In this document: positions 3,941-38,987 of the stretch, in pieces
How positions within the stretch are numbered: position 1 is the first letter of the stretch
Layout of the letters: each line of letters begins with the position of its first letter
Source of the DNA: Acidimicrobiia bacterium
GTDB lineage: Bacteria; Actinomycetota; Acidimicrobiia; Acidimicrobiales; JANYDT01
Direction of reading: 5' to 3'
Assembly: GCA_031381685.1 (NCBI GenBank)
Contig: JANMYF010000037.1
Span: forward strand, 11,247 to 75,246
Length of the DNA: 64,000 bases
Position numbers and translations under genes: made by a program
The notes under the pieces: generated by a model
What the model was told of the DNA's origin: nothing
Database searches by the model: none
What the model saw: the letters and a program-made list of their open reading frames with translations, nothing else

Positions 3941-5239
3941 TCAGGCCTTGGCGGCGGCGAACCCGGCGTTCAGGTCGGCCAGCAGATCGTCGATCGACTC
4001 CAGGCCGATGGACAGACGGATCAGGCTGGGGGTGACTCCGGTCGCCGCCTGCTCGGCGGGAGTGAGCTGGCTGTGGGTCGTCGCCGCCGGCTGGATGACC
4101 AGCGAACGAAGATCGCCGACGTTGGCCAGGTGGCTGAACAGCGACAGGGCGTCGACGAACTTCTTGCCCGCCTCGATGCCGCCCTTGAGCTCGAAGTTGA
4201 CGATGGCCCCGGCTCCGTTGGGCAGGTACTTCTTCGCCTTGTCGTTCCAGGGCGAGCTGGCGAGGCCGGGATAGCGGACCAGCTCGACGTCGGGGTGGGC
4301 CTCGAGGAACTTCGCGATCGCCAGCGCGTTGGCGCAATGACGATCCATGCGGACGCTCAGCGTCTCCACGCCTTGGATGAGCAGGAACGAGTTGAACGGA
4401 GCGATCGCCGCGCCGTAGTCACGCAAACCCTGCACGCGCGCCTTGATGATGTAGGCGGGCGCACCGAGCACCTCCCAGTATTTTAAACCGTGGTAGCTCG
4501 GGTCGGGCTCGGTCATCATCGGGAACCGCCCCGAAGCACCCCAGTCGAACTTGCCACCGTCCACGATGATGCCGCCGATCGACGTGCCGTGGCCGCCGAT
4601 GAACTTGGTCAGCGAATGCACGACGATGTCGGCGCCGTGCTCGAGCGGACGGCACAGGTACGGCGTGGCGAGCGTGGCGTCGACGATTAACGGGACGCCG
4701 GCCTCGTGGGCGACACCGGCGACGCCCGTGACGTCGAGGACATCACCCTTCGGGTTGCCGATCATCTCGCCGTAGAGCGCCTTGGTGTTGGGCTTGATGG
4801 CCTTGCGCCAGGCGTCGAGATCATCGGGGTCATCGATGAAGTCGACGGTGATGCCGAGCTTCGGCAGGTTGTAGTGGAACAGGTTGTAAGTGCCGCCGTA
4901 GAGGCTCGCCGAGGCCACGATGTGGTCACCGGCTTCGGCGATGTTCAAGATGGCGAGGGTTTCCGCTGCCTGGCCCGATGCAACCGCCAGGGCCGCGACG
5001 CCTCCTTCGAGCGACGCGATGCGCTGCTCGAGCACATCCTGCGTCGGGTTCATGATGCGTGTGTAGATGTTCCCCGCTTCCGCGAGTCCGAACAGCGCTG
5101 CGGCGTGGTCGGTGTCACGGAACGCGTAGCTGGTGGTCTGGTAGATCGGGGTGGCGCGGGCGCCGGTGGCGGGGTCGGGTGCGGCACCGGCATGGATCTG
5201 CCGTGTTTCGAAACCGAAGGACGAAGGGTCGAGGGCCAT
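3941..5239 (-). CDS. metY: O-acetylhomoserine sulfhydrylase (PLP-dependent, Cys/Met metabolism family)
   Basis: 432 aa. N-terminus FETRQIHAG...[14 protein letters not shown]-lysine region [18 protein letters not shown]-terminus [21 protein letters not shown]-like caggag sits upstream of the ATG at 5239. Confidence 0.9.
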
Positions 5240-5349
5240 GGGAACAACTCCTGGAGATTGGGTGCGTCGGCGAGCGCCGGAACGCGGAAGGGAAACAGGG
5301 TAGGGATGGGGATGACGAAAGACGGCGACACGATTTCGCTTTGCTTTGC

Positions 5350-5490
5350 CTTGCCGCGACCGTCGGATCAGTCAGGTGGTACAGCTCACCGGGATTCCTC
5401 CTTCATCGTACGGGCGTTGGCACCTGGCGGTTCTCGCTGGTTGCCGCGACGTCGACGGGCCCGTCCCTCGGTCGCTCTGGATGACGCGGA
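5350..5490 (-). promoter_or_regulatory. SAM riboswitch of the SAM-I clan (S-box core; P4 appears reduced, as in SAM-IV or SAM-I/IV variants) in the metY-metX leader
   Basis: The minus-strand read of 5488->5395 is CGUCAUCCAGAGCGACCGAGGGACGGGCCCGUCGACGUCGCGGCAACCAGCGAGAACCGCCAGGUGCCAACGCCCGUACGAUGAAGG. It matches the S-box conserved blocks UCAUC-AGAG, GAGGGA, GGCCC, GCAACC, GGUGCCAA and the closing GAUGA. It lies about 155 nt upstream of the metY ATG. Confidence 0.75.
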
Positions 5491-5603
5491 ACAGTCAAGC
5501 GAGCGAAACCCGACCTGTCAAGTCAGTTTTCCCGAGCGATGGCCGGGCGATACCCTGCGAGCGTGAGGAACGGGGTCCCTTCGGCGACGATCGCGAGCCG
5601 GCC

Positions 5604-6446
5604 ATGACGGGGAACCCCTGGCTGGCGCGCCGACCCCTGCACTACGCCCATCAGGGCGGTGCACTCGAGGCCCCTTCCACCACGCTCTACGCGATGCGGC
5701 GGGCCGTCCACGAGCACGGCGCCCATGCCCTCGAGCTCGATGTACACCGCACCGCCGACGGTGTCCTCGTGGTCTGCCACGACACGACCGTCGACCGGAC
5801 CACTCCGGCGACCGGCGCCATCCACGACTTCACCCTGGATGAGCTGCGCCGGCTCGACAATGCGCACTGGTGGTCCCCCGGGCACGACGCCGTCGTCGGC
5901 TTGATGGACGAGGCGTACCTGCTCCGGGGACGCTTTCCCGATGATCCGTCGCTCGGGATCGCCACGCTGGAGGACGTGCTGGTCGAGTTCCCGGACGTGT
6001 TCCTCAACTTCGACATCAAAGAAATCGGTCCGCACCGCTACGAGGCCGACCTCGCCGACCGGCTCCGGGCGCATGGCCGCACGACGGACGTGATCGTGGC
6101 GTCCTTCCACGATGACGCGCTCCGCGCGTTCAGCGCCTACGCGCCGGAGATCCATGTGTCGCTCGGCCCCGACGACACGTTCGCCTTCTACGACGCGGTG
6201 ACGAACGGTGCCCCCCACCGGGTGTTCGCGCCCTCGCAGGTCGCCCTGCAGGTCCCGGCGTCCTTCGAAGGCATCGAGGTCGTCACCCCGGCGTTCGTCG
6301 ACGCCGCCCATCGCCTCGGGCTGGCGGTCCACGTGTGGACGATCGATGACGAGCAGGAAATGCGTCACCTTCTCGCCATGGGTGTGGACGCCATCATGAC
6401 GGACCGCCCGAGCGTCCTGGCCGCCGTGCTCTCCGCCGGGGCCTGA
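5604..6446 (+). CDS. Glycerophosphodiester phosphodiesterase family protein
   Basis: The GDPD N-terminal motif HYAHQGGALEAPSTTLYAMRRAV..GAHALELDVHRTADGVLVVCHDTTVDRTT is present. I chose ATG 5604 because the upstream part of ORF 5346.. overlaps the riboswitch region and is not protein-like. Confidence 0.8.
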   Translation: MTGNPWLARRPLHYAHQGGALEAPSTTLYAMRRAVHEHGAHALELDVHRTADGVLVVCHDTTVDRTTPATGAIHDFTLDELRRLDNAHWWSPGHDAVVGLMDEAYLLRGRFPDDPSLGIATLEDVLVEFPDVFLNFDIKEIGPHRYEADLADRLRAHGRTTDVIVASFHDDALRAFSAYAPEIHVSLGPDDTFAFYDAVTNGAPHRVFAPSQVALQVPASFEGIEVVTPAFVDAAHRLGLAVHVWTIDDEQEMRHLLAMGVDAIMTDRPSVLAAVLSAGA

Positions 6447-6464
6447 GCGCAGCTCTCGGCTCGG

Positions 6465-7940
6465 CTACGCACCCACCGAGAACAGCTGGTCGACCGGGGC
6501 GAAGTCGTCCCGCAGCACCGGACTGTCGCCGACCCAGCGACGCAGTGCAGCGCCTGAACGGACGACGGCCTCATAACCGCGCTCGTCGATCATCGCCCGG
6601 TAGGTGTCGACGGGCAGCGGCCGGTCGGACGCGACGACGATGAAGTTGGACCCGAATGGCTCCCGGGAGAACGAGGACTCCGGAGCGAACACGGCAACGT
6701 GGTCGAACACGCTGGCGATCGTGGCCACCTCAGCACGCACGAAACGGTGCTGCTTGGCATCGATCACGTTCAGGGCGTAGATGCCATCCGGACGCATCGC
6801 CTCCCGGATCACGCGGGTGAACTCGACCGTGGTGAGGTGCCACGGCACCGCCTCGGCCCCGAACGCATCCCCGAACACCACGTCAGCCCGACCTTTCGGC
6901 TGGCGTCCCATCGTGACCCGGCCGTCACCGATCACCACGTCGACATCGGGTCCGGGCACCCAGCCGAGCTTGCGCTCGGCCAGATCGGGCAGCGCGGCGT
7001 CGACCTCGAGTACGACGCCCGTCGAGCCGGGCCGAACGGCGCGCACATAGCGGGGCATCGTGAGCGCGCCGCCGCCGAGGTGCACAGCATGAATCGGACC
7101 GGGCGCAAGGGCGTCGACCGCGACTCCGAAGAGCTGGGTGTAGGGGAAGCGAAGCGACGCCGGATCGTCGAGGTCGACCTCGGAGTGGTCGAGGTTGTCC
7201 AGGTGGAGGACGCGAATCGATGGTTCGCCCTCGATGCCGAGCACCGACGCGCAGTAGTACGCGCCCTCCATCTCGCACGGGCTGTCGACGGTGACCGCCG
7301 CCCCGGCCCCCAGTCCCCCGAAGGCCAGCAACCCGACGGCGGCAAGACGTTCCGTCCGAGGCCGCTTGCGAGTGGTCACCGTGAGAAGCGCGCCGACGGC
7401 GATCAATGCGGCCCCGACGCATAGGACCGTGACGGTGACCGGCACCTTGGCGACGAGCAGGAAGCCCGTGACGAAGGTGCCCACGATCGCCCCGGTGGTG
7501 CCGATGGCGCTCATCGATCCAACGGTCGCCCCACTCGACTCGAGCGAACGCAACTGCGTCTTGACGAGCATCGGCGACACGGCGCTGAGCACGATCGAGG
7601 GAAGCAGGAATCCCGCCACCGTGGCGATGAGCACGACGGCGACGCTGGTCCCGTCGAGGCGCTCCGCGGCAACGCGGACGATCGGCGGGGCGAGCAGTCC
7701 GAGCCCGCCGCCCAGCATCATCGTGGGTCCCACCATCGACCTCGGGTCGATCTCGTCGGAGACCCGCCCTCCGAGCCAGCTTCCGAACGCGATGCCGGCC
7801 AGCACCACCCCGATGATGGAGGTGTAGGTCTGCAGAGTCACGCCGACGTACGGGGCCAGCAAACGTCCGGCGAGGATCTCCAGGACCAGCACCGAAGCCG
7901 ACGTGAAGAACGCCAGGACGCGCGCGACAGTTTGGTTCAC
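6465..7940 (-). CDS. Fused polytopic-membrane / spermidine-synthase-like (class I methyltransferase fold) protein
   Basis: The N-terminal half has hydrophobic helices (LEILAGRLLAPYVGVTLQTYTSIIGVVLAGIAFGSWLGG). The C-terminal half has the aminopropyltransferase-like motif VHLGGGALTMPRY...VVIGDGR...DVVFGDAF. GTG 7940 was chosen because it lies just after the upstream gene's stop at 7954. An ORF-track start at 8015 is possible. Confidence 0.65.
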   Translation of the reverse strand: MNQTVARVLAFFTSASVLVLEILAGRLLAPYVGVTLQTYTSIIGVVLAGIAFGSWLGGRVSDEIDPRSMVGPTMMLGGGLGLLAPPIVRVAAERLDGTSVAVVLIATVAGFLLPSIVLSAVSPMLVKTQLRSLESSGATVGSMSAIGTTGAIVGTFVTGFLLVAKVPVTVTVLCVGAALIAVGALLTVTTRKRPRTERLAAVGLLAFGGLGAGAAVTVDSPCEMEGAYYCASVLGIEGEPSIRVLHLDNLDHSEVDLDDPASLRFPYTQLFGVAVDALAPGPIHAVHLGGGALTMPRYVRAVRPGSTGVVLEVDAALPDLAERKLGWVPGPDVDVVIGDGRVTMGRQPKGRADVVFGDAFGAEAVPWHLTTVEFTRVIREAMRPDGIYALNVIDAKQHRFVRAEVATIASVFDHVAVFAPESSFSREPFGSNFIVVASDRPLPVDTYRAMIDERGYEAVVRSGAALRRWVGDSPVLRDDFAPVDQLFSVGA

Positions 7941-7953
7941 AGGGGCGATGTCC

Positions 7954-8877
7954 TCATCGGGTGGTGTCGGTCTCGGGGGCGAACTCGCTTCGCAGCAGCA
8001 CGTTGCCGGTGGCATCGTCGATGACGACGACGATGTCGGAGAAGACGATACGGGCGATTGTCGTGACGGGAACGATCGTCGGCAGGTTCTGGCGGATCAC
8101 GACGGACGACTGGCGTCGGCCCTCCACACCGGCGAAGCGGACGACCCAGACCGTACGCAGATCGCGCTTGAGCTGACCGGTTCCGCCGGTGACCCGTTCG
8201 TTGGTCTCGAGGGCGTAGCGGGCGAAGAACACCTCGGGCGTCGGGGCAACCGTTCCCGTCGGCAACTCTCGTTTCGCGGTGCGCACCACTGACGCCTTCG
8301 ACCGGATCACCTTGGTCGACGGCTCAACCGGCTCGAAGCGCAGCGCACCGGCCGCCAACGTGCGGGTCGTGGTGATTCGCAGGCCGCTCTTCGCCGTTGT
8401 CGTCGGCGCCCGGACCGTCGTGGTGGGCAACGCCGTTGTCGTGGGCGGCCGGACCGTCGTGGTGGGCAACGTCGTCGTCGGCCGGACCGTCGTGGTGGGC
8501 AACGCCGTCGGGGGCCGGACCGTCGTCGCTGCGCCCGTGAGACCGGTGGTCGACGGAACAACGCTGCGTGGCGAACCGGACGCGACCACCGCGCCCGGAG
8601 TCGTCGTTCGAACACCGGTCGAAGGCGGCAGTCCCGGAGGACCGGCAACCGCCCGGAGTTGGGTGCCGGCGGCGGGCGTCGGCCCGGCCACCCGGCTCGC
8701 GGGAGGAGCGGAGGTGATGGGCGTCCGCGGCGAAACGGTCGAGGTCGTCTGGGCGCGAACCGGGCGAACGTGGTCAACGACAACGACGACGGCGGCCACA
8801 ACGACGACGGCGGCCACAACGGCGACGGGGGCGACGAACGCCGAGATCGACCGTCGCTTTCCCTGTCCAGATCGCAC
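7954..8877 (-). CDS. Membrane-anchored hypothetical protein with a Pro/Thr-rich tandem-repeat linker
   Basis: 307 aa. It has an N-terminal TM segment (FVAPVAVVAAVVVVAAVVVVV), then repeats ...LPTTTVRPTTTLPTTTVRPPTTTALPTTTVRAPTTT, then a roughly 130-aa C-terminal domain I do not recognise. Confidence 0.5.
   Translation of the reverse strand: MRSGQGKRRSISAFVAPVAVVAAVVVVAAVVVVVDHVRPVRAQTTSTVSPRTPITSAPPASRVAGPTPAAGTQLRAVAGPPGLPPSTGVRTTTPGAVVASGSPRSVVPSTTGLTGAATTVRPPTALPTTTVRPTTTLPTTTVRPPTTTALPTTTVRAPTTTAKSGLRITTTRTLAAGALRFEPVEPSTKVIRSKASVVRTAKRELPTGTVAPTPEVFFARYALETNERVTGGTGQLKRDLRTVWVVRFAGVEGRRQSSVVIRQNLPTIVPVTTIARIVFSDIVVVIDDATGNVLLRSEFAPETDTTR
8400..8525. repeat. In-frame coding tandem repeat (39/33/33-bp units) that encodes the PT-rich linker
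   Basis: CCGGACCGTCGTGGTGGGCAACG recurs at 8400, 8439 and 8472, with a partial copy at 8505. Confidence 0.8.
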
Positions 8878-8951
8878 GGCCGTCCAGGCTACGGCGACAG
8901 CGAGGGCTTGGTCGCCAGCATCGGTCCGGTCGATCGATCGGACAAAGCCCG

Positions 8952-9881
8952 GTGGTCGGTGGGAGCATCACTGCCGTGACCACATCGCCCTCCTTCACCG
9001 AGATCCGCTACGACGTCGCCGACCGGGTCGCCACCGTCACCCTCGATCGGCCGGACCGCCTCAACGCCTTCACCGGCCAGATGATGCGGGAGGTGATCCA
9101 GGCGATGGACCTCGCCGACGCCGACGACGGCGTCCGCGCGGTGGTCTTCACCGGCGCCGGTCGGGGGTTCTGTGCCGGCGCGGACCTCGCCGCCGGTGGG
9201 GCAACGTTCGATGGCGCCGCGTCCAAGGGCACCGTCGCCGAAGCGATCGCCGGGACCGTCGACGAACGGATCCGCGACGGGGGCGGCCGGATCTCCTTGC
9301 GACTGTTCGAATCGCGCAAGCCGCTCATCGCCGCGATCAACGGCCCGGCGGTCGGGGTTGGGGTCACCATGACGCTGCCCATGGACATACGCCTGGCGTC
9401 GACGAGTGCCAAGTTCGGTTTCGTCTTCGCCCGCCGTGGCATCGTCCCCGAAGCCTGCTCGAGCTGGTTCCTCCCCCGGCTCGTCGGTATCTCGAAGGCC
9501 ACCGAATGGTGCTTCACCGGCCGTGTCTTCGGTCCTGATGAGGCGCTTGCCGGTGGCCTGGTCCGCAGTGTCCACGCCCCCGACGATCTGCTTCCGGCGG
9601 CCTACGCCTTGGCCGGTGAGATCGCGTCGAACACGTCGGCGGTGAGCGTCGCCGTCACCCGCCAGATGCTGTGGCGCATGCTCGGTGCCGACCACCCGAT
9701 GGAAGCTCACGTGGTCGATTCCCGGGCGATCTGGGAGCTCGGCAAGGGCAAGGACGCCCGTGAGGGTGTCGAATCGTTCCTGGAGAAGCGCCCGGCCGTC
9801 TTCTCGGCCTCGCCTACGACCGACATGCCAGACTTCGTGCCGTGGTGGGAGAACCGACCGTTCCGCGGGTTGCCGCGCTGA
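8952..9881 (+). CDS. Enoyl-CoA hydratase/isomerase (crotonase) family protein
   Basis: Crotonase motifs are present: VATVTLDRPDRLNAF, VVFTGAGRGFCAGADL, PLIAAINGPAVGVGVTMTL. An alternative GTG start at 8976 follows gggag. Confidence 0.85.
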   Translation: MVGGSITAVTTSPSFTEIRYDVADRVATVTLDRPDRLNAFTGQMMREVIQAMDLADADDGVRAVVFTGAGRGFCAGADLAAGGATFDGAASKGTVAEAIAGTVDERIRDGGGRISLRLFESRKPLIAAINGPAVGVGVTMTLPMDIRLASTSAKFGFVFARRGIVPEACSSWFLPRLVGISKATEWCFTGRVFGPDEALAGGLVRSVHAPDDLLPAAYALAGEIASNTSAVSVAVTRQMLWRMLGADHPMEAHVVDSRAIWELGKGKDAREGVESFLEKRPAVFSASPTTDMPDFVPWWENRPFRGLPR

Positions 9882-13168: not shown

Positions 13169-14863
13169 TCAGCGACCCAGCTTCGTGCGGGCGTGGTCGG
13201 TGAGGCGTTTGTAGTCGACCTTGCCCGACGGCGAGCGTCCGATGGTGTCGACGACCACGACGAGCCGGGGGGTCTTGTACCGGGCCAGCCGGGCGGAAAC
13301 CGACGCGAGGACGGCGCCCTCGTCGAACTCGCCCCGGGTGAGCGAGAGCGGCGACGGTTGGATGACGGCACAGATCACCTGTCCGAAACGGTCGTCGGGA
13401 ATTCCGACACAGACCGCATCCTCGACGAGCTCGTGCACCTTGAGCACCTCCTCCACCTCCTCGGGGAACACCTTCTCCCCGCCGGTGTTGATGCACACCG
13501 ACCCGCGACCGAGCAGGAGCAGCGAGCCGTCGGACTGGACCGTGGCGAAGTCGCCCGGGATCGAGTAGCGGACCCCGTCGATGAGCCGGAAGGTTTTGGC
13601 CGACTTCTCCGGATCCTTGTAGTACCCGATCGGCACGTAGCCGCTGATGGCGACGAACCCCTGCTCCTCGGAACCCGGCTCGACGCGCCGGTTGTCGTCG
13701 GTGAAGACGTGGACCGTGGGGCCGAGCTGGAATTTCGCGGTGCCGGCCGACTTTCCCTTCGACGACGTGGATGCACCGAGCCCAACCGCTTCCGACGATC
13801 CGTAGGAATCGACCAGCAAGACGTGGCCGAGGTGTTCGAGCAGCCCGTCCTTGGTCTCCTGGCTCCACATCACGCCGGAACTGGTGATCAGGCGAAGGCT
13901 GCTCAGATCCCAGCGTCCGGGGTTGGCGTTCAATGCCTGGAGGAGCGGCTTGGCGAACGCATCGCCGACGATCACCGCCCAGTTGATCGACTCCCGTTCG
14001 ACGAGGTCGAAGAACTCCTCGGCGACGAACGACCGGCTCGGGTTGGTGACAACGCAACCGCCGAGAGCGAGCACGATCAGCGCCGTGAACTGCCCGGTGC
14101 CGTGCATGAGCGGGCACGCCGGGATCATCACGGGGCCGGGACCCACGGTGCGAGCGGCCAACTCGTCGATCGACGACACCGCCGAGAAACCGAACAGGGG
14201 TTGCCCGCCCTGACCGAGCACGTTGAACAGGTCGTCCTGACGCCACATGACGCCCTTGGGCATGCCGGTCGTTCCGCCGGTGTAGAGGAAAAGCAGGTGG
14301 TCGCCGCTGACGCCCCACGGACCACGGACGTTGGGACCGTCGGGCGTCCATCCGCTGACCAGGTCCTCGTAGGGCACGGCCCACGGTGCGGCCGCCGCTC
14401 CCGAACCGGCCGTGGTGCCCGGGTCGTCGACGACGTACCACCGCTTCACCTTCGGAAGCTCGGCACGAACCGTGTCGACCAACTCGGTATAAGCGGCATG
14501 GAACACGACGGCTTCCGCGTCGGAGTTGTCGAACAGGTAGCGGATCTCGTCGGCCCCGTAGCGGTAGTTCGTGTTCACCGGCACGAGACCCGCCTTGAAC
14601 GCGGCGAGATAGACCTCGAGGAATTCCGGACCGTTGGTGAGGTACGCGGCGACCTTCGACTGCTCGCCGAGCCCGGCGGCGAGCAGATCGTCGGCCAGCG
14701 CGTTGGCCCGGGCATTGAACGAGCCCCAGCTGAAGCGCCGAGAACCGGCGACCTGGGCTGGCGCATCCGGCACCCGTCCGGCTATGGCTTCGAGCGCTTC
14801 GGCAAAGTTCCAGCCGCTCACGAATGTCCTTTCGAGGCAGACGACGTCGTCGCATGGCGACAC
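13169..14863 (-). CDS. Acyl-CoA synthetase (AMP-forming), paralog 1 of 3
   Basis: 564 aa. Motifs LFLYTGGTTGMPKGVMWRQDD, GYYKDPEKSAKTF, PGDFATVQSDGSLLLLGRGSVCINTGGEKVFPEEVE. Clearly paralogous to 21607..23229 and 23226..24902. Confidence 0.85.
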   Translation of the reverse strand: MSPCDDVVCLERTFVSGWNFAEALEAIAGRVPDAPAQVAGSRRFSWGSFNARANALADDLLAAGLGEQSKVAAYLTNGPEFLEVYLAAFKAGLVPVNTNYRYGADEIRYLFDNSDAEAVVFHAAYTELVDTVRAELPKVKRWYVVDDPGTTAGSGAAAAPWAVPYEDLVSGWTPDGPNVRGPWGVSGDHLLFLYTGGTTGMPKGVMWRQDDLFNVLGQGGQPLFGFSAVSSIDELAARTVGPGPVMIPACPLMHGTGQFTALIVLALGGCVVTNPSRSFVAEEFFDLVERESINWAVIVGDAFAKPLLQALNANPGRWDLSSLRLITSSGVMWSQETKDGLLEHLGHVLLVDSYGSSEAVGLGASTSSKGKSAGTAKFQLGPTVHVFTDDNRRVEPGSEEQGFVAISGYVPIGYYKDPEKSAKTFRLIDGVRYSIPGDFATVQSDGSLLLLGRGSVCINTGGEKVFPEEVEEVLKVHELVEDAVCVGIPDDRFGQVICAVIQPSPLSLTRGEFDEGAVLASVSARLARYKTPRLVVVVDTIGRSPSGKVDYKRLTDHARTKLGR

Positions 14864-16405: not shown

Positions 16406-17230
16406 CTACGAAGGGTCGGTGTAGTTCGCCGGACGCTTCTCGAAGAATGCGGTGACGGCTTCGATCTGGTTCGGCGACCCGATAAGGGCGCGGATCTCGC
16501 GGCGCTCCGCCGCCAGTCCTTCGGCCGCCGTGACGTGCCCGGCGTTGTTCAGCAGGCGCTTCCCGGCCCGGATGGCGTGGGGGCTCCGTCCGGCGATCTC
16601 GGCCGCTGTCTCGAGAGCCAGCGCTCTCGGGTCATCGGCCATGCGGGTCGCCAGGCCGATGCGGACAGCCTCTTCGGCGCCGACCATACGACCGGTGAAG
16701 GTGAGCTCCTTGGCCTTGTCGAGGCCGACGAGTTCGCGCAGCAGCTGCGTCCCGGCCATGTCGGGGATCAGGCCCCAGCGGATCTCGAGGATCGACATCT
16801 GTACGTCGGGCGAGACGTAGCGCAGGTCGGCGCCAAGGGCGATCTGGCAGCCGCCGCCGAGGGCGGCTCCGTGCACCGCGGCGATGACCGGGACCGCCAG
16901 CTCGTGCCAGACCCACACGGCCTGCTGACCGGCGTGGGTGATGCGGCCGGGGAGCCGGGACGGGTCCTCGGGATCGCCGTCCTGGGGGAGCACGCTCGCG
17001 CCGCGCCCTCCGGCCATGGCCTGGAAGCTCCCGAAGTCGAGGCCGGCGCAGAAGCTCCGTCCTTCACCCGAAAGCACGACGGCGCGCACCGACGAGTCCG
17101 TCTTGAGCGCCTCCCCGACCTCGACCAGCGCCGAGAACATGGCGCCGTCGATGGCGTTCATCTTGTCGGCTCGGTTCATGCGGACGTCGGCGACGCCCCC
17201 GTCGATCACACACGTCACTCGGTCGCTCAT
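16406..17230 (-). CDS. Enoyl-CoA hydratase/isomerase (crotonase) family protein
   Basis: Motifs VADVRMNRADKMNAI, VVLSGEGRSFCAGLDF, PVIAAVHGAALGGGCQIAL. ATG 17230 was chosen because the upstream extension to 17362 is not protein-like. Confidence 0.85.
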   Translation of the reverse strand: MSDRVTCVIDGGVADVRMNRADKMNAIDGAMFSALVEVGEALKTDSSVRAVVLSGEGRSFCAGLDFGSFQAMAGGRGASVLPQDGDPEDPSRLPGRITHAGQQAVWVWHELAVPVIAAVHGAALGGGCQIALGADLRYVSPDVQMSILEIRWGLIPDMAGTQLLRELVGLDKAKELTFTGRMVGAEEAVRIGLATRMADDPRALALETAAEIAGRSPHAIRAGKRLLNNAGHVTAAEGLAAERREIRALIGSPNQIEAVTAFFEKRPANYTDPS

Positions 17231-17371
17231 GTTCCCATCCTCGCCGTCGGCGCCGGTCGGAGACAAAACGGCGTCGGCCGCGTCGCAGGGCTTGCGACCG
17301 TTCGAGGACGTCGGCCACGATGCCAATCGTCTCCGGACGGCCAGCACAGCCTCGTGCCTCAAGCCTCAGGC

Positions 17372-17493
17372 CACGCGCAGCTCAGCCCGACCCACGCGCA
17401 CCTCTCACCAAACTTGGGGTCGAACGGCTTGGACGACCCGACCTGCGCGTGACTCGGGCTGAGGTGCGCGCCAAACCCGCCGATCTGCGCGTG
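17372..17493. repeat. Intergenic inverted-repeat element built from CACGCGCA(G/C) 9-mers
   Basis: The left arm is CACGCGCAG-ctcagcccgacc-CACGCGCAC (17372-17401). The right arm is CTGCGCGTG-actcgggctgag-GTGCGCG (17443-17470). A further gatCTGCGCGTG lies at 17482-17493. The inner ctcagcccgaccca resembles the reverse complement of the 19-bp unit at 53105-53256. Confidence 0.7.
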
Positions 17494-17580
17494 GATCGAC
17501 GCACGCACGACTCCGGCCCCGATGGAAGTTCTCGTGCGTTGCGATCTCCGAGAGCGTGGGAGTCGGTAGCCTCGCCCCTC

Positions 17581-18660
17581 GTGATTGTGAATCGACTCGA
17601 CATTGATGCTGGCGCGTTCGAAGCGGCGACCGGCTGGCAGATCAAGCCCGAGGGTGCCTGCAAGGGTGACGTATGCGTGCCGCTCGACCGCTCCGGCGGC
17701 GCAGCGGACGGCTTCGACCTCATGGCGACCGCGGATCGGCTGGGCATGGCCATCGTCGCCGATGCCGACGCCGGCCTGTGGTCGATCGGTCCCGAGAGCC
17801 TCGGCGGTCGCTCGCTCACCACGGCCACCGCACCTGAGCTGTCACTGCCCGACGTGCTGACGGGCGCAGAGGTCAGGCTGTCGTCGTTTCGCGGGAAGAA
17901 GGTGGTGCTCGCCTCCTGGGCACCGTATTGAGGGTGCCGCTTCGACCTGCCCGGGTGGCAGGCACTGCGCAACGAGGTACACGGCAAAGGTGTCGAGATC
18001 ATCACTGTTGGCCTCGAGATGGGCGGCGCCGAGGTGCTCCGGCCCATCGTCGAAGCAGCCCGGCCCGAGCACCCGTCGCTGGTCGACGCCTCGCACCAGA
18101 TGGACGCGCTGTTCGGCGTCACCAACATCCCGCAGGTGCTGTGGATCGACGAGACCGGCACGATCGTGCGACCGGCCGAACGCGGTTCTCCTGCGCCGCA
18201 GCCGACCGAGGACCCGTTCGCGAAGTTCATCTTCGAGCTCATGGCCCGGGGCACGACGCATCCCGAGTGGTACGGCGATCGCGTCCGCGACTGGGCGGAG
18301 AAGGGATCCGACAGTGAATGGGTTCTCACGCCCGAGGCGGTGATCGCCGGGTCGCATCCCCGCACGCGCGACGTGTCCGAGGCTGCGGCGCACTTCGCAC
18401 TCGCGCAGCACTTCTGGTCCACGGACGGATTCTCCGCCCCGGCGTTGCATCACTTCGAGCGCGCCCACACGCTCCAGCCGGAGAACATCACCTACAAGCG
18501 GCAGGCCTACTCGGCATGGAGCTTCGCGAAAACGCACGACGACACCGCGCGATTCGCGCAGTCGCCGAATCCCGGTGAAGAAGACCAGTGGCCCTTCGTC
18601 TCGGAGTTCTTTGCCGATGCGAAGCAGTACCTGGGACTCGACCTGGTCGCACCGTCCTGA
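17581..18660 (+). CDS. ResA/TlpA-like thioredoxin-fold protein with an in-frame TGA (17929-17931) at the active-site Cys position; candidate selenoprotein, copy 1
   Basis: ORFs 17320..17931 and 18019..18660 share a frame and are split only by TGA. Read-through gives ...GKKVVLASWAPY-U-GCRFDLPGWQALRNEVHGKGVEIITVGLE...NIPQVLWIDETGTIVRP. It is homologous end to end with the gene at 37253..38347, which has TGA at the same column. The start (GTG 17581 or 17587) is uncertain. Confidence 0.65.
17946..17962 (+). promoter_or_regulatory. SECIS-like hairpin 14 nt downstream of the in-frame TGA (copy 1)
   Basis: CCTGCC-CGGGT-GGCAGG has a 6-bp stem and a 5-nt loop carrying G and U. The same stem occurs at the same offset in copy 2. 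Confidence 0.45.
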
Positions 18661-20391: not shown

Positions 20392-21540
20392 ATGAAGCGG
20401 GCGATCTTCAACGACGAACACGTCATGTTCCGCGATGCGTTCCGGCGCTTCGTGGAGAAAGAGATCACCCCCAATTTCCTCGCCTGGGAGCAGGCCGGGA
20501 TCGTCCCGCGCGAGCTGTTCGCCGCCGCCGGCGCAAACGGCTTCCTCGCCCTGCAGGCGCCCGAAGCCTTCGGTGGTGGCGGGACCCACGACTTCCGATT
20601 CAATGCCATCATCGGCGAGGAACTCATGTACGCCGGCACCGGCGGCGCCGGGCTCGGCATCACCCTGCACAACGACATCACCCTCCCCTATTTCTTGGAG
20701 CTGACCACCGACGAGCAGAAGCAGCGCTGGCTCCCGGGTATTTGCAACGGCTCGCTCATCACGGCGGTGGCCATGACCGAGCCGGGTATCGGCTCGGACC
20801 TCGCGTCAATGTCGACCACCGCTCTGCGCGACGGCGACCACTACGTCGTGAACGGTTCGAAGACCTTCATCACCAACGGCATCAACGCCGACCTCGTGAT
20901 CACGGCAGTGAAGACCGATCCGTCGCAGAAGCACAAGGGCATGACGCTGATGGTGCTCGAACGCGGCATGGACGGATTCACCCGCGGGCGCAACCTCGAC
21001 AAGATCGGCATGCACTCCCAGGACACGGCCGAGCTGTTCTTCACCGACGTGCGGGTGCCGGTCGCCAACCGTCTCGGCGACGAAGGTCAGGGCTTCGCAC
21101 TCCTTGTTCGCAACCTGGCCCAGGAGCGGCTGTCCATCGCTGTAGCCGGTGTCGCGGCGGCGCGGGCGGCGCTCGATTGGACGGTCGAATACACCAAGAA
21201 CCGCAAGGCGTTCGGGCAGCCCGTCGCGTCGTTCCAGAACTCGAAGTTCCGACTCGCCGAGATCGCCACGGAGGTCGAGATCGGGCAGGTTTTCGTCGAC
21301 CGTTGCATCGAGCAACTCAACGCCGGCGAGCTCACCGTCGAAGAGGCGGCCATGGCCAAGTGGTGGTGCACCGAACTGCAGAAGCGCACCGTCGACACCT
21401 GCGTGCAGCTCCACGGTGGCTACGGCTACATGCAGGAGTACCCGATCGGCCGCGCCTATGTCGATGCCCGCATCACCACGATCTATGGAGGCACGACCGA
21501 GATCATGAAAGAGATCATCGGCCGCAAGGTCGTTGGCTGA
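20392..21540 (+). CDS. Acyl-CoA dehydrogenase
   Basis: 382 aa from ATG 20392. Motifs AVAMTEPGIGSDLASM, NGSKTFITNG, QLHGGYGYMQEYPIGRAYVDARITTIYGGTTEIMKEIIG. Confidence 0.9.
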   Translation: MKRAIFNDEHVMFRDAFRRFVEKEITPNFLAWEQAGIVPRELFAAAGANGFLALQAPEAFGGGGTHDFRFNAIIGEELMYAGTGGAGLGITLHNDITLPYFLELTTDEQKQRWLPGICNGSLITAVAMTEPGIGSDLASMSTTALRDGDHYVVNGSKTFITNGINADLVITAVKTDPSQKHKGMTLMVLERGMDGFTRGRNLDKIGMHSQDTAELFFTDVRVPVANRLGDEGQGFALLVRNLAQERLSIAVAGVAAARAALDWTVEYTKNRKAFGQPVASFQNSKFRLAEIATEVEIGQVFVDRCIEQLNAGELTVEEAAMAKWWCTELQKRTVDTCVQLHGGYGYMQEYPIGRAYVDARITTIYGGTTEIMKEIIGRKVVG

Positions 21541-21606: not shown

Positions 21607-23229
21607 CTACGCAGATTCGAGAGTCTGGCGAGCCCAGGCGTAGTCGGCCTTGCCGTTGGCGGCACGGCGCACTTCGCTCACGATGACCGAAGTGCGCGGG
21701 AGCTTGTAGCTGGCCAGCCACCGCTTCACCTCGTCCAGGACGACGTCCGGATCACCGACGGCCGCTCCCTCGTGAAGGGACAGCACGGCGGCGACGCGCT
21801 CGCCGAAGCGCTCGTCGGGAAGGCCGACAACGAGGCAGTCGGCCACGGCGGGGTGGCGCTTCATCGCCTCTTCGACCTCCTCGGGGAACACCTTCTCGCC
21901 TGCGGTGTTGATGCAGTGCGAGCCCCGGCCGAGGAGCACGAGGGTCCTGTCCTCCGCCCACACGGCCCAGTCGCCGGCCATGGTGTGGCGTACGCCGTCG
22001 ATCTCCACGAACGTCGCCGCGGATTTCGCCGGGTCGTTGAAGTAGCCGAGCGGCACCACCGCGCACGCGGCGATCCGGCCGCGTTCGCTGGAGCCGGGCG
22101 GGATGACGGAACCGTCCTCGCCGATGAGCTTCGTTCCGGCAAGCGGTTCGAACCGTGCGGTCTCGATGGGCGTTCCTCTCGTGACGATGCGACGGGCCAT
22201 GGCCCCTTCCGTCGACCCCATCGAATCGACGAGACGCACGTCGAGGTGGCGGAGCAGTCCGGTCTGGACCTCGGCACTCCACATCACACCGCTCGACTGG
22301 ATGATCCGCAGCGCGGAGAGATCGTAGCCACGGCCCTCGTCGACGGCCCGGTCGAGGGCGTCGAGCATCGGTCGCGCAAAGGCGTCGCCGACGATGGTCA
22401 CGGCATCGGCACGAACCTCGGATGCGGTCCGCCAAAGCTCGTCGGCGTCGAAGGAACGGCTCGCCAGAGTGACGACGCAGCCCCCCATGAGGTGCGCATA
22501 GAACGCTCCGAGCCACATGCCGGTGCCATGCATGAGCGGACAGGCCGGGATGCTCACCCGCCGATCTCCCGCGTCCCGGTGCGCAGTGATGTGCTCCAGC
22601 AACGTCTCCGCCGTCGGCACGTCCCATCCGCGGTAGAGGTACCCCGTGAGACTGCGCCGCACGAAGTCGCCAATGCGGAACATCACCCCCTTGGGCATGC
22701 CGGTCGTGCCGCCGGTGTACAGCATGTACATGTCGTCGTCGGACCCGCGCAACGTTTCTTCCGGATCATACGCGCGCAGACTGTCAGTCCACGTTGTTTC
22801 CACGAGCTGATCGACCGCGTTGTTCTCAGCCCCGGCGATCACCACCTGGCGCAGTGACGGAACACGTGGCCGGATCGTACGCACGCGCTCCGACAATCCG
22901 CTCTCGGTGACGAGCACCGTCATCGCACTGTCGTTGGCCAGGTATGCCAGTTCGTCGTCAAGGTAGCGATAGTTCACATTGACCGGCACGGCCCGGCGGA
23001 GAAAGGCTCCGTACTGCGCGATCAGGTACGTCGGCGAGTTGTGGAGAAGGAGTCCGACCCGGTCACCGGGACCGACGCCCACGGATGCGAGGAATGTGGC
23101 GAACCGTGCGGCTTCGTCATGGAATGCGGACCATGTCCACGTGGCTCCCACGTGCTGCAACGCAAGGTCGCCGCCGTACCGCCCGGCGATCTCGGTGAAG
23201 ATGTTGGCGAAGTGCAGTCGATCGGTCAC
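21607..23229 (-). CDS. Acyl-CoA synthetase (AMP-forming), paralog 2 of 3
   Basis: 540 aa. Motifs MYMLYTGGTTGMPKGVMFRIGD and GDWAVWAEDRTLVLLGRGSHCINTAGEKVFPEEVE. Confidence 0.85.
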   Translation of the reverse strand: MTDRLHFANIFTEIAGRYGGDLALQHVGATWTWSAFHDEAARFATFLASVGVGPGDRVGLLLHNSPTYLIAQYGAFLRRAVPVNVNYRYLDDELAYLANDSAMTVLVTESGLSERVRTIRPRVPSLRQVVIAGAENNAVDQLVETTWTDSLRAYDPEETLRGSDDDMYMLYTGGTTGMPKGVMFRIGDFVRRSLTGYLYRGWDVPTAETLLEHITAHRDAGDRRVSIPACPLMHGTGMWLGAFYAHLMGGCVVTLASRSFDADELWRTASEVRADAVTIVGDAFARPMLDALDRAVDEGRGYDLSALRIIQSSGVMWSAEVQTGLLRHLDVRLVDSMGSTEGAMARRIVTRGTPIETARFEPLAGTKLIGEDGSVIPPGSSERGRIAACAVVPLGYFNDPAKSAATFVEIDGVRHTMAGDWAVWAEDRTLVLLGRGSHCINTAGEKVFPEEVEEAMKRHPAVADCLVVGLPDERFGERVAAVLSLHEGAAVGDPDVVLDEVKRWLASYKLPRTSVIVSEVRRAANGKADYAWARQTLESA

Positions 23230-24902
23230 GACACGGAAAGGGCGGCGGTGGCCACTTCCTTGGCCCAGCCGTAGTCGGCCTTGCCGTTCGGAGCCCGCTT
23301 GACCTCGTCGACGATGAGCACGTGCTTCGGTGCCTTGTAGCCGGCGAGCTCGGACTTCACGTGGGCGATCAGCGTCGACGGATCGACGCCGGCGGCCGAC
23401 GAATGCACCGACGCAACGGCAACAACCCGTTCGCCGAACTTCTCGTCGGGCATGCCGACGACCAGGCAGTCGAACACGGCATCGTGACGCTTCACCGACT
23501 CCTCGACCTCCTCGGGAAAGACCTTCTCCCCTGCGGTGTTGATGCAGTTCGAACCGCGTCCGAGCAGCGTCAGGGATCCATCGACGTTGATCAGTGCCAT
23601 GTCACCCGGGAAGGAGTACCGAACCCCGTCGATCATCTTGAACGTGCGATCGGATTTTGCCTCGTCTTTGTAGTAACCCATCGGGATATTGCCGCCGGCG
23701 GCCACCATGCCGACCTCCCCTGAACCCGGCACAACGGGCCGCATCGCGCCGGTTTGCGGGTCTTCGATGAACACCTTCGTGGTCTCGTTGGCGGTGAACT
23801 TCGCCGTCTCGGTCGACATCTGGCGAGTCGTCATCGTCATGCCCATCGACGCTTCGGACGAGCCGAGCGCGTCGGCGAGGGCGAAGTCACCGTGGCGCAG
23901 GAGCTCGGCCTTGATCTCGCTCGACCACATCACGCCGGCCGACATGATCAGTTTGAGGCTCGACGTGTCGTAGGGACTACCGCGTTCGGCGGCGGCATCG
24001 AGGGCCCGGACCATCGGTTTGGCGAATGCGTCGCCGACGATGACGGCCATGGTGACGTTCTCGTCGCTGACGGCACGCCAGAGTTCGTCGGCATCGAAGT
24101 TCCGGCTCTCGAGCAGCACGCAGGCGGCGCCGAGGTGCGCCGGCAGGAACGCCCCGAGCCACACACCGGTTCCGTGCATGAGCGGGCACGCCGGTATGGC
24201 CTTGGGTAGTGTGCCCCCCATCTTCTCCCGGAACGCCTTGACGAACGGAGCGATGGACGCGGCATCGGCGGGCGGAGGTACCTGGGCGAGGATGGGGTAG
24301 CCGAGGAGCAGTCCGCCGCAGAAGCCGCCCATCTGGTACATGACGCCCTTGGGCATACCGGTCGTGCCGCCGGTGTAGAGCATGTAGAGATCGTCCTCGG
24401 AGCGGGTCATCCGCGACGCCGGCTCCGTGGCCATGACCTCGGACAAGGCGTGGGAACCGGGAAGCGGCACCTGACCGCCTTCGTCGTCGACCTCGATCCA
24501 CAGCTTGACCTGCGGCGCCTTCTCCTTGACCCGGGCCACGCGATCAGCAAGCGATGCGTGGTACACGAGCACTTCCATGTCGGCGTTGTCGATCAGGTAG
24601 GCAAGCTCGTTGTCGAGATAGCGATAGTTGACGTTGATCGGCACGAGGCGTTCCTTGAACGCTCCGTACTGCGCGATCAGGTACTCCGGCGAGTTGTAGA
24701 GATACATGCCGAGCTTGGCCTGCCCCTGGACCGGGGTGCTGTTCTCCCCGCCGATCCCGTGCGCCCGCACGAACCCGGCGAATCGCGCCGCCTGCTCGTC
24801 GTAGGCGGCCCAGCTGAGTCGCCGGGGCCCCTGGATGACGGCGTCGGCGTCGCCGATCGCGTCGGCGAGTGATTCCCAGATCGTGGCGAAGTGCATCTCC
24901 AT
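23226..24902 (-). CDS. Acyl-CoA synthetase (AMP-forming), paralog 3 of 3
   Basis: 558 aa. Motifs LYMLYTGGTTGMPKGVMYQMGG and GDMALINVDGSLTLLGRGSNCINTAGEKVFPEEVE. Its stop overlaps the downstream paralog's start by 4 bp. Confidence 0.85.
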   Translation of the reverse strand: MEMHFATIWESLADAIGDADAVIQGPRRLSWAAYDEQAARFAGFVRAHGIGGENSTPVQGQAKLGMYLYNSPEYLIAQYGAFKERLVPINVNYRYLDNELAYLIDNADMEVLVYHASLADRVARVKEKAPQVKLWIEVDDEGGQVPLPGSHALSEVMATEPASRMTRSEDDLYMLYTGGTTGMPKGVMYQMGGFCGGLLLGYPILAQVPPPADAASIAPFVKAFREKMGGTLPKAIPACPLMHGTGVWLGAFLPAHLGAACVLLESRNFDADELWRAVSDENVTMAVIVGDAFAKPMVRALDAAAERGSPYDTSSLKLIMSAGVMWSSEIKAELLRHGDFALADALGSSEASMGMTMTTRQMSTETAKFTANETTKVFIEDPQTGAMRPVVPGSGEVGMVAAGGNIPMGYYKDEAKSDRTFKMIDGVRYSFPGDMALINVDGSLTLLGRGSNCINTAGEKVFPEEVEESVKRHDAVFDCLVVGMPDEKFGERVVAVASVHSSAAGVDPSTLIAHVKSELAGYKAPKHVLIVDEVKRAPNGKADYGWAKEVATAALSVS

Positions 24903-37252: not shown

Positions 37253-38347
37253 GTGCTCCTGACGACGCTGTCGCCCTCTCCCGAAGAACTCTTCGAGCAG
37301 ACCGGTTGGGAGGCGAAACCGGAGGGGCTCTGTCGCGGTGCGGTGTGCGTGCCCTCCCCCGGAGCCCGGCGGGCCGACGGGACGATCGATGTGTCGATCG
37401 TCGCCGAGCGGCTCTCGATGCCAATGCTCCGTGATGAAGCGTCGGGCACCTGGGTGCTCGGCCCGTCCGCCCTGAGCGGCCGAGCGCTCGACACGGCCGT
37501 GGTCCCGCCGCTGTCGATCACGACATTCGACGGCACACCGTTCGACCTCTCGTCGCTGCTCGGGCGGAGGATCATCCTCGCCGCCTGGGCGAGTTGGTGA
37601 GGCTGCCGCGCTGACCTGCCCGTGTGGCAGGCACTGCACGAAGAACTCTCCCCGCTCGGCATCACCGTCGTGACGGTGGCCATGGATGCCGAGGTGGCGA
37701 TGGCCGAGCCCTGGGTGTCGGCGGCATCGCCGACGCATCCGTCGCTGATCGACCGCACGCACAGCCTCGGCGGCGCCCTCGGATTCGTCAACGTGCCGAT
37801 GGCGGCGTGGATCGACGAGAACGGCGTGCTCGTCCGCCCCGCCGAGTCCGCTCGGGTCGTCCCGAGCAGCACGGCCGGGCGGGAGGTCCCGCCCGGCCTC
37901 CCGCCACGCATCGCCGCACGCTTCGAGCTGCTGCGCCATGCCGAGCCGAACCCCCACAAGCCGTACCTGGCGGCGTTGCGCGACTGGGCACATCGCGGTG
38001 TCGACAGCCCATTCGCCCTCACCCCGGACGAAGTGGTCGAACGGTCAAAGCCTCGCGACGCCGACGAGGCCCGGGCCGCCGCCTGCTTCGAGATGGGCGA
38101 ACACCTGAGAGAAACCGTCGGCATCGACGCGGCAGCCCCGTGGTGGCGGGAAGCCCATCGCCTTCAGCCGTCGAATTGGACCTACAAACGTCAGGCCTGG
38201 ACCTTGGAGACGACGGCTCCCGGTCAGCCTTCGGATCTCGTCCAGGAACCGACCGACCGCTACGAGGGCAACTGGCTCGACGATCTCGTGGCCCAGGGTG
38301 GCCTGAAGAACCAGACACCGGCGTTCTCCGGTCCGTCAACCCGCTGA
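37253..38347 (+). CDS. ResA/TlpA-like thioredoxin-fold protein with an in-frame TGA (37598-37600) at the active-site Cys position; candidate selenoprotein, copy 2
   Basis: ORFs 37106..37600 and 37622..38347 share a frame and are split only by TGA. Read-through gives ...GRRIILAAWASW-U-GCRADLPVWQALHEELSPLGITVVTVAMD...NVPMAAWIDENGVLVRP. It is colinear with copy 1 over the N-domain, Trx fold and C-domain. The start (GTG 37253 or ATG 37190) is uncertain. Confidence 0.65.
37615..37631 (+). promoter_or_regulatory. SECIS-like hairpin 14 nt downstream of the in-frame TGA (copy 2)
   Basis: CCTGCC-CGTGT-GGCAGG has the same stem and offset as copy 1. The single difference lies in the loop. Confidence 0.45.
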
Positions 38348-38920: not shown

Positions 38921-38987
38921 GCCTTCCAGCGTGGCAGGCGATCCGGGTCAGCGGCGCCACGGCGCCGGTCAACTAGCCTTGACTGCC

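Follow-up and report, generated by a model that had tools for sequence, protein, structure and literature searches.

Two paralogous genes with an in-frame TGA codon

The DNA analysed here (the window) is a stretch of 64,000 nucleotides from an Acidimicrobiia bacterium (assembly GCA_031381685.1, contig JANMYF010000037.1, positions 11,247 to 75,246). It carries two copies of a gene whose reading frame contains a TGA codon that is read here as selenocysteine (Sec, U). An earlier note on this DNA, which flagged the interval 17581-17928 (the portion of the copy 1 gene 5' of its in-frame TGA), had described two candidate selenoproteins built of three parts. Both copies were recovered, copy 1 at 17581-18660 and copy 2 at 37253-38347, the latter located via a six-frame motif scan of the window. 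The encoded proteins are 38% identical across 346 aa (U written as C), the TGA codons fall into the same alignment column and the alignment of the two copies is unbroken across this codon. The two genes and their parts are as follows:

17581-18660, plus strand: copy 1 coding sequence of 359 codons and a stop, beginning with GTG; codon 117 is the in-frame TGA read as Sec
17929-17931, plus strand: copy 1 TGA (Sec117); the frame is open from the GTG at 17581 to the stop at 18658-18660
17581-17829, plus strand: copy 1 N-terminal domain (about residues 1-83), family-specific
17659-17661 and 17674-17676, plus strand: copy 1 Cys pair, C27 and C32, on a beta-hairpin within PEGACKGDVCVP
17836-18180, plus strand: copy 1 thioredoxin-fold (ResA/TlpA-like) domain (about residues 86-200), with W-A-P-Y-U-G-C-R and an N-I-P loop
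17929-17937, plus strand: copy 1 active-site codons TGA-GGG-TGC for Sec117-Gly118-Cys119; the next codon, CGC, encodes Arg
17946-17962, plus strand: copy 1 hairpin resembling a selenocysteine insertion sequence (SECIS), CCUGCC / loop CGGGU / GGCAGG, within the codons for D-L-P-G-W-Q
18190-18657, plus strand: copy 1 C-terminal domain, all helical (about residues 204-359), containing a single repeat of the tetratricopeptide (TPR) type
37253-38347, plus strand: copy 2 coding sequence of 364 codons and a stop, beginning with GTG; codon 116 is Sec
37598-37600, plus strand: copy 2 TGA in W-A-S-W-U-G-C-R (DNA TGA-GGC-TGC-CGC)
37331-37333 and 37346-37348, plus strand: copy 2 Cys pair, counterpart of C27/C32
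37615-37631, plus strand: copy 2 SECIS-like hairpin, CCUGCC / loop CGUGU / GGCAGG

Both genes belong to the catalogued family NF041054

Copy 1 matched NCBIfam NF041054 with 398.4 bits (residues 1-324, profile positions 1-323 of 354) and copy 2 with 460.9 bits (residues 1-357, profile positions 1-351 of 354), the cut-off being 300 bits. NF041054 is an NCBIfam equivalog named "ResA-like WAxxUGC motif-containing protein" (model name WAxxUGC_long), and homologues in Frankia sp. QA3 and in a Porticoccaceae metagenome-assembled genome (MAG) already carry this name. The motif W-A-x-x-U-G-C (U or C) of the family is present in both window copies as WAPY-TGA-G-C-R and WASW-TGA-G-C-R, and Cys forms read WASWCGC. 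When the three segments of the proteins were searched separately against Pfam and NCBIfam by profile hidden Markov models, NF041054 was the sole NCBIfam match of each segment and the only match of the flanking domains. The flanking domains had previously been regarded as unrecognised, which holds for Pfam, where no match was obtained; it does not hold for NCBIfam, as both copies match NF041054 end to end, nor for the C-terminal domain, in which a TPR repeat was recognised. On these matches, both loci are genes of an already catalogued family.

A "Prx-like (UGC-containing)" family with the motif UGC was described in Global Ocean Sampling (GOS) data with 46 Sec sequences and 855 Cys homologues and was commoner in non-marine samples (PMC2398784). 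A UGC selenoprotein family has been in the literature since 2008 (PMC2398784; PMC13188914), and one "UXC" Prx-like sequence was mentioned in 2005 (PMC1088965). From the shared motif and fold we infer that the UGC family of the literature and NF041054 are the same family. The observation is not novel: the family is curated and listed among the bacterial selenoproteins, with no known function.

The in-frame TGA is predicted to be decoded as selenocysteine

The window was compared with 88 related loci, giving 94 occurrences of the family. TGA was present at the homologous codon in 86 of the 94 occurrences and TGC or TGT in the other 8, and the TGA column was found in 83 distinct sequences from several phyla. 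An in-frame UGA stands where homologues have Cys, with conservation on both sides of it. Family-conserved sequence is also encoded by the 29 codons that follow the TGA of copy 1 before the next possible start codon is reached.

A hairpin with a stem of 6 bp lies 15-31 nt 3' of the TGA (CCUGCC, loop CG[U/G]GU, GGCAGG). Across the 83 distinct Sec-form sequences 99.4% of the hairpin cells are paired, two of the pairs show compensatory C-G to U-A changes (9 cells), and the pairing and covariation scores were reached by no shuffle. The same helix was predicted independently by RNAalifold, with a consensus folding term of -9.88 kcal/mol. In the Sec forms the helix is frozen at its synonymous sites: the Leu codon has an invariant third base (G21), and the third base of the Pro codon (C24) is conserved in at least 90%; the Cys forms use other codons or residues, and their stem arms are fully complementary in one of eight (L005, read by eye). 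The bacterial SECIS (bSECIS) model asks for a loop of 3-9 nt, a stem of 4-16 bp, a G in the first two loop positions, a distance of 16-37 nt from the UGA and a minimum free energy of at most -7.5 kcal/mol (PMC13188914). All these constraints are satisfied by the hairpin, which has a 5-nt loop, a 6-bp stem, 20 nt between UGA and loop and the consensus folding term of -9.88 kcal/mol. No Rfam family matched the hairpin at threshold. Since single-sequence folding of the SECIS region was not significant against shuffles in this GC-rich (67% GC) sequence, the support for the hairpin is comparative.

Were the TGA a genuine stop instead, each locus would represent a pseudogene or a pair of separate small genes, and reading through it would have created the "selenoprotein" as an artefact. 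Such a view would agree with the public gene callers, which split the gene into products of about 115 and 238 aa, and with the finding of no tRNA-Sec or sel genes among the window open reading frames (ORFs) scanned. However, the same TGA column recurs in 83 distinct sequences of several phyla and is replaced by TGC or TGT in the Cys forms, protein conservation runs across the TGA and the start-codon-free stretch of copy 1, the conserved hairpin conforms to the SECIS model, and NCBI curates the family with U in its name. The true-stop reading is effectively refuted, and its probability is negligible. The earlier proposal that the two genes encode selenoproteins was borne out by the TGA census, the Cys homologues and the bSECIS-like hairpin: the in-frame UGA is predicted to be decoded as Sec with the help of the conserved structure 15-31 nt downstream.

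The U-G-C motif is one residue shorter than CxxC

In phmmer alignments of the copy 1 thioredoxin (Trx) domain with TlpA/ResA-like structures a one-residue gap was obtained within the motif ("WAPYC.GCR" against "WATWCpPCR"; "WAPYCG.CR" against "WASWCGpCR"). All full-length Cys homologues retrieved (75/75) have C-G-C, reading W-x-x-[WY]-C-G-C, and both window copies have TGA-GGN-TGC. Because of this gap and the uniform C-G-C, the motif is, by alignment, the canonical W-C-G-P-C short of one residue throughout the family, and the shortened redox motif described in the earlier note was thereby confirmed. A misaligned ordinary UxxC was considered as well and was ruled out by the same two observations.

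The U is aligned with the first of the two Cys of WCxxC, where helix alpha-1 starts; the Cys stands two residues further on, and a basic residue comes next. Three residues past the second Cys, D122 aligns with Glu80 of ResA (phmmer). The conserved Pro loop is also present, reading N-I-P in copy 1, where it aligns with G-V-P of TlpA-like structures.

Three-part domain architecture

For structural analysis a Cys homologue (P0018, 49% identical to copy 1) was modelled with AlphaFold2 from a 57-sequence alignment, and the exact N-terminal 90 residues of the window protein were modelled as well. The P0018 model was confident and compact (pLDDT 93.7, pTM 0.90), and it reproduced the three-part architecture proposed before, with an N-terminal domain, a ResA-like Trx domain and a helical C-terminal domain:

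About residues 1-75: N-domain, of alpha/beta type; the Cys pair lies on a beta-hairpin formed by strands 25-28 and 31-33
About residues 88-201: Trx domain, with ResA, StoA and TlpA as relatives by Foldseek
About residues 208-345: C-domain, all helical, with one canonical TPR repeat by profile

The N-domain had been put at about 115 aa, which proved too long: the domain proper comprises about 75-85 aa and is followed by a linker, and the N-terminal beta-hairpin that begins at about residue 88 is the Trx fold's own. Its Cys pair is conserved as described, C27 and C32 being invariant in 59 sequences within the motif P-E-G-x-C-[KR]-G-x-x-C-V-P (spacing C-x4-C). Of 150 cluster representatives, 138 contain the pair by a strict regular expression; the other 12 are for the most part truncated fragments or variants in spacing. 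Searches with the N-domain gave no match in Pfam, none in the PDB by profile and none in the PDB by Foldseek with E<1. In a phmmer search against 1.84 billion cluster representatives it was almost confined to the N-terminus of the NF041054 family; 520 clusters were hit at E <= 0.001, many of them fragments of about 115 residues, 40 of which end exactly at W-A-x-x, immediately ahead of the TGA. Matches in two large repeat proteins (P0237, P0266) look compositional or spurious and were discounted.

The Trx domain matched Pfam AhpC-TSA with 39.7 bits (copy 1) and 38 bits (copy 2) against a cut-off of 26, and copy 1 also matched Redoxin above its cut-off (31.9 bits). Foldseek searches with the P0018 model returned ResA/TlpA/StoA-type chains for all of the top 50 matches (E about 1e-10, TMt 0.72-0.78, root-mean-square deviation about 1.8 Å), among them ResA 2f9s (E=9.5e-11, TMt 0.76), and no solved structure spans more than the Trx domain (TMq about 0.3). 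In phmmer searches of TlpA/ResA-like chains in the PDB, 3kcm was matched with E=1.3e-11.

The helical nature of the C-terminal domain was likewise recovered, with helices from about residue 208 to 345 of the P0018 model. Profile positions of about 72-115 of this domain match consensus TPR proteins (e.g. 2fo7, E=3.6e-16), one repeat being recognisable. Precomputed Pfam TPR_2 matches exist for some homologues, and the Pfam TPR thresholds were not reached by the two window proteins. The last 35 or so residues of copy 1 depart from the family consensus, its NF041054 alignment ending at residue 324.

Both proteins are probably cytoplasmic

Export signals were assessed by Kyte-Doolittle hydropathy, by the GC content at third codon positions (GC3) of upstream extensions and by comparison of the N-termini within the family. 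No hydrophobic segment at the level of a transmembrane helix was found, the maximal 19-residue mean being 0.99 for copy 1 and 1.42 for copy 2. In 73 of 75 full-length homologues GW stands at the same offset as in the window copies, about 17 residues past a "MIL/VIL" start, and both GTG starts agree with this family N-terminus. The in-frame upstream extensions have a non-coding-like GC3 of 0.60 and 0.71 (0.81-0.85 in genes), and that of copy 2 overlaps the divergent neighbour gene. The signal peptide, lipobox or membrane anchor of classical, extracytoplasmic ResA/TlpA proteins was thus found neither by hydropathy nor by N-terminus comparison, as had been noted earlier for signal peptide and transmembrane segment.

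A classical exported or anchored ResA/TlpA protein whose true start and signal peptide were missed was considered as an alternative. In copy 2, translation from an upstream in-frame ATG at 37190 would extend the protein by the weakly hydrophobic "MGIGLAVVGC..." (19-residue mean 1.58). Yet this extension has a lower GC3 and overlaps the start of the divergent HpcH/HpaI aldolase gene at 37191, and the extension of copy 1 is Arg-rich and non-hydrophobic. Moreover, the 73 homologues with GW at the same offset and the MIL/VIL start have no leader, and the NF041054 profile begins at residue 1 of both proteins. A missed signal peptide is effectively refuted and has hardly any probability left. Because no export signal is detectable, both proteins are probably cytoplasmic.

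Genomic context and distribution

Both window genes stand alone, each with a divergent neighbour upstream and a convergent one downstream:

Copy 1: crotonase gene upstream (divergent); GHMP-kinase-like gene downstream (convergent)
Copy 2: HpcH/HpaI aldolase gene upstream (divergent); alpha/beta hydrolase gene downstream (convergent)

Metagenomic relatives of copy 2 have the same TGA and neighbours; over the two-thirds after the TGA, which is what gene callers report, they are 89% identical. The commonest neighbours in the family were an SDR-like ORF (18/87 loci), a crotonase (14/87) and an ABC-ATPase-like ORF (13/87). The recurrent SDR-like, crotonase, ABC-ATPase-like and acyl-CoA-dehydrogenase-like neighbours belong to abundant families and may recur by chance.

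The loci fetched derive mainly from uncultured Actinomycetota (Acidimicrobiia, Solirubrobacterales, Frankia) and Chloroflexota, further ones from Burkholderiales (Pseudomonadota), Myxococcota, Dormiibacterota and others. The closest relatives are mostly of the Sec form (86 Sec and 8 Cys occurrences). The best match of copy 1 was found in an Acidimicrobiaceae MAG (59% identity), and its WAPY motif also occurs in the Acidimicrobiia loci L001-L003. Tandem or near-tandem paralogues are present in L001 (6001-8100), L002 and L003 (both 4900-7083) and in L053 and L075 (both 6001-9650); in L001-L003 a WAPY-U-G-C copy lies beside a WASY-U-G-C copy. In Frankia two Cys forms are separated by about 2.4 kb, and the second reads WASWCGC-A, not -R.

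In L086 (10445-11593), and likewise in L087 and L088, selD is itself a Sec form, with the TGA in "SHGAG*ACK" and truncation by the gene caller. It adjoins CobS/CobO-type genes and lies 4-5 kb from the WAxxUGC gene; in one related Sec-form locus the distance is 4 kb, and the presence of a Sec-type selD there speaks for Sec decoding. A general linkage to selD was rejected, L086, L087 and L088 being the only loci with this gene at a distance of up to 5 kb; it was counted as close by in 2 distinct loci of about 85.

Several further features of the window were recorded. The surroundings of copy 1 are rich in ORFs resembling acyl-CoA metabolism genes, three of them acyl-CoA-synthetase-like by eye (13169-14863, 21607-23229 and 23226-24902, all minus strand); a crotonase (16406-17233, minus strand) and an acyl-CoA dehydrogenase (20392-21540, plus strand) were confirmed by NCBIfam, and acyl-CoA-dehydrogenase-like neighbours occur in 8 of 87 family loci. 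The crotonase gene and the start of copy 1 are separated by 347 nt of intergenic DNA, in which a long imperfect palindrome, unique in the window, lies at 17374-17470 (27-nt arms, 89% complementary, 43 nt apart). RNA of 17360-17510 folds at -73 kcal/mol (z = -4.8; 0/200 shuffles as stable), and the palindrome could be a 5' untranslated region structure, an operator or a small mobile element. At 38931-40175 (plus strand), two genes downstream of copy 2, lies the gene of a pyridoxal phosphate enzyme of Cys/Met metabolism that resembles methionine gamma-lyase or O-succinylhomoserine sulfhydrylase, below the equivalog cut-offs; it is kept at this place in the close relatives L081, L082 and L084 but not in more distant ones. 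At 56509-57585 (minus strand) a domain of the maleylpyruvate-isomerase family of mycothiol-dependent enzymes was found (TIGR03083, 71 bits against 50), which suggests a mycothiol-using actinobacterial host and is relevant to a possible reductant of the selenoprotein. A SAM riboswitch (Rfam RF00162, 62.4 bits against a gathering threshold of 44.4) lies at 5400-5487 (minus strand), just upstream of the minus-strand ORF 3941-5239.

Proposed function and alternatives

By analogy with the ResA-like fold, a role as cytoplasmic selenol/thiol oxidoreductase is most likely. Sec117, at the position of the attacking N-terminal Cys of CxxC, would attack an oxidised substrate (a disulfide, possibly a sulfenate or a peroxide). 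Cys119 would resolve the adduct, giving a strained 11-membered Se-S ring, which in turn would be re-reduced by a cellular reductant or possibly by the Cys pair of the N-domain. Specificity may be conferred by the TPR-like domain together with invariant polar residues, namely H164, D169, H172, D190, R197 and the NWTYKRQAW block. Together with the TPR-like domain, these residues suggest that the protein acts on a defined client or substrate rather than in general disulfide reduction. That all of this holds jointly, i.e. a Sec protein of the NF041054 family, probably cytoplasmic, of three modules and likely a selenol/thiol oxidoreductase, appears to us reasonably probable.

Several points weigh against this interpretation. 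Experimental characterisation of any member was not found in the literature searched, the 64-kb window is without a tRNA and about 20 ORFs scanned in it include no sel gene, and gene-neighbourhood clustering across 87 loci yielded no conserved partner. In addition, the CxC/CxU precedents diverge: a Cys-Gly-Cys peptide is oxidising or isomerase-like (E0' -0.167 V, similar to PDI; bioRxiv 10.64898/2026.01.27.701630), while SELENOF's Trx-like domain with its C-G-U is a reductase (-256 mV; PMC9304195). Finally, C27, C32, U117 and C119, four invariant chalcogen residues, would suit a metal site no less than a redox relay.

In such a site U117, C119, C27 and C32 would form a three- or four-ligand arrangement that binds a metal, a metalloid or selenium, with As(III), Hg, Cu, Zn, an Fe-S cluster or selenide/persulfide as candidate ligands and the Trx fold serving as scaffold. 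A single residue between two Cys (C-x-C) is typical of sites for metals and metalloids, e.g. ELCVCDL of ArsR and the CXC of CCS. In favour are also the invariance of all four residues, the identical U-x-C spacing in the SelD loop that handles selenide ("GAG-U-A-C-K" in a related locus) and the pTM of 0.90 of the P0018 model, which indicates a fixed arrangement of the domains. On the other side, redox catalysis in UxxC selenoproteins is usually marked by an exchange of Sec and Cys at the N-terminal position of the Trx-fold motif, the acidic residue equivalent to ResA Glu80 is retained, and the proximity of the Cys pair to U-G-C is itself putative. Nor do metal-handling, ars, mer or cop genes recur beside the gene in the 87 loci, and selD is close by in no more than 2 distinct loci of about 85. 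We therefore hold metal, metalloid or selenium binding, by whichever of these ligands, to be rather unlikely, at about one chance in several.

Packing of the invariant hairpin pair Cys27/Cys32 against Sec117-Gly-Cys119 could provide a built-in two-step selenol/dithiol relay, or else a four-chalcogen site in which Sec is one of the ligands and a metal, metalloid or selenium/sulfur atom is carried; we consider this doubtful. If either were true, the family would be a cytoplasmic Trx-fold carrier or enzyme of a new kind rather than one more disulfide reductase.

A thiol/selenol peroxidase of the glutathione peroxidase (GPx) or peroxiredoxin (Prx) type, in which Sec117 would be peroxidatic and form a selenenic acid that is resolved by Cys119, has to be weighed as well. 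The Pfam matches to AhpC-TSA and Redoxin above the cut-offs speak for it, as do weak GSHPx matches that span the active site (E 0.0026-0.052). The local A-S-x-U-G is similar to NVASxUG, the string at the active site of GPx. The family was also first filed as "Prx-like" (PMC2398784). However, the Prx signature PxxxTxxC is absent, with Ala at -3 and Trp at -4 from the Sec, the GSHPx matches of 13.6 and 17.7 bits are far under the 27-bit cut-off, and the best sequence and structure matches are the reductases ResA, TlpA, StoA and DsbE. A peroxidase is thus improbable, and the selenol/thiol oxidoreductase remains our preferred interpretation.

Annotation and significance

Each locus should be annotated as one selenoprotein of about 360 aa. 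In the public calls inspected (L081-L088; P0001-P0010, P0121-P0270) Sec forms are systematically split at the UGA, the products being an N-terminal ORF of about 115 aa that ends at W-A-x-x and a "hypothetical protein" of about 238 aa without Pfam match. Among the fetched loci the NF041054 family is widespread, covering several phyla and being mostly of the Sec form in the closest relatives. A Trx fold with W-U-G-C would be the natural counterpart of engineered CXC catalysts and a useful test case for the tuning of redox potential by ring size and selenium.

Comparison with known systems

With the other members of NF041054 the two copies share the full-length match, the W-A-x-x-U-G-C motif, the three-part architecture and the alternation of Sec and Cys. 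Nothing essential differs; copy 1 belongs to a "WAPY-U-G-C" subgroup and is divergent in its last 35 or so residues.

The central domain has the same fold as the extracytoplasmic thiol-disulfide reductases ResA, TlpA, StoA and CcmG (DsbE), and it also shares W-x-x-W ahead of the first redox residue, a basic residue behind the second, an acid at the Glu80 position and the Pro loop. The departure from classical ResA/TlpA proteins that had been pointed out earlier was upheld: the motif is C/U-G-C with one residue deleted instead of C-x-x-C, a signal peptide or anchor is not detectable, and N- and C-terminal domains are added. The scores obtained with the models of these families are far under their cut-offs (46.8 bits against 170 for ResA).

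SELENOF (Sep15), a eukaryotic selenoprotein of the endoplasmic reticulum (ER), also combines a one-residue Cys/Sec spacing in a Trx-like fold with an N-terminal Cys-containing domain, which is Cys-rich and binds a partner (PMC9304195). It differs in its location in the ER and in the order of the motif, C-G-U being reversed, and the N-domains are unrelated in size and Cys pattern. The loop G-x-G-[U/C]-x-C-K of SelD resembles the motif in its U-x-C spacing and in the alternation of Sec and Cys at the first position ("SHGAG*ACK" in the related locus), whereas SelD has an AIR-synthase-like fold, carries the motif in a flexible Gly-rich loop rather than at a helix N-terminus and handles selenide, not disulfides.

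The motif can further be viewed as the thioredoxin W-C-G-P-C minus its Pro, as in the Cys-Gly-Cys peptide (E0' -0.167 V). A thioredoxin variant in which the active-site Pro is deleted is an engineered CXC catalyst; such catalysts differ from the proteins described here in being synthetic, in using Cys only and in having no accessory domains. Finally, CnoX/YbbN and plant TDX resemble the WAxxUGC proteins in that a cytoplasmic Trx-fold domain is followed by a helical, client-binding domain of the TPR type, but they have a classical Trx domain, one that is not TlpA-like, and several TPR repeats and are without the N-domain, Sec or CxC.

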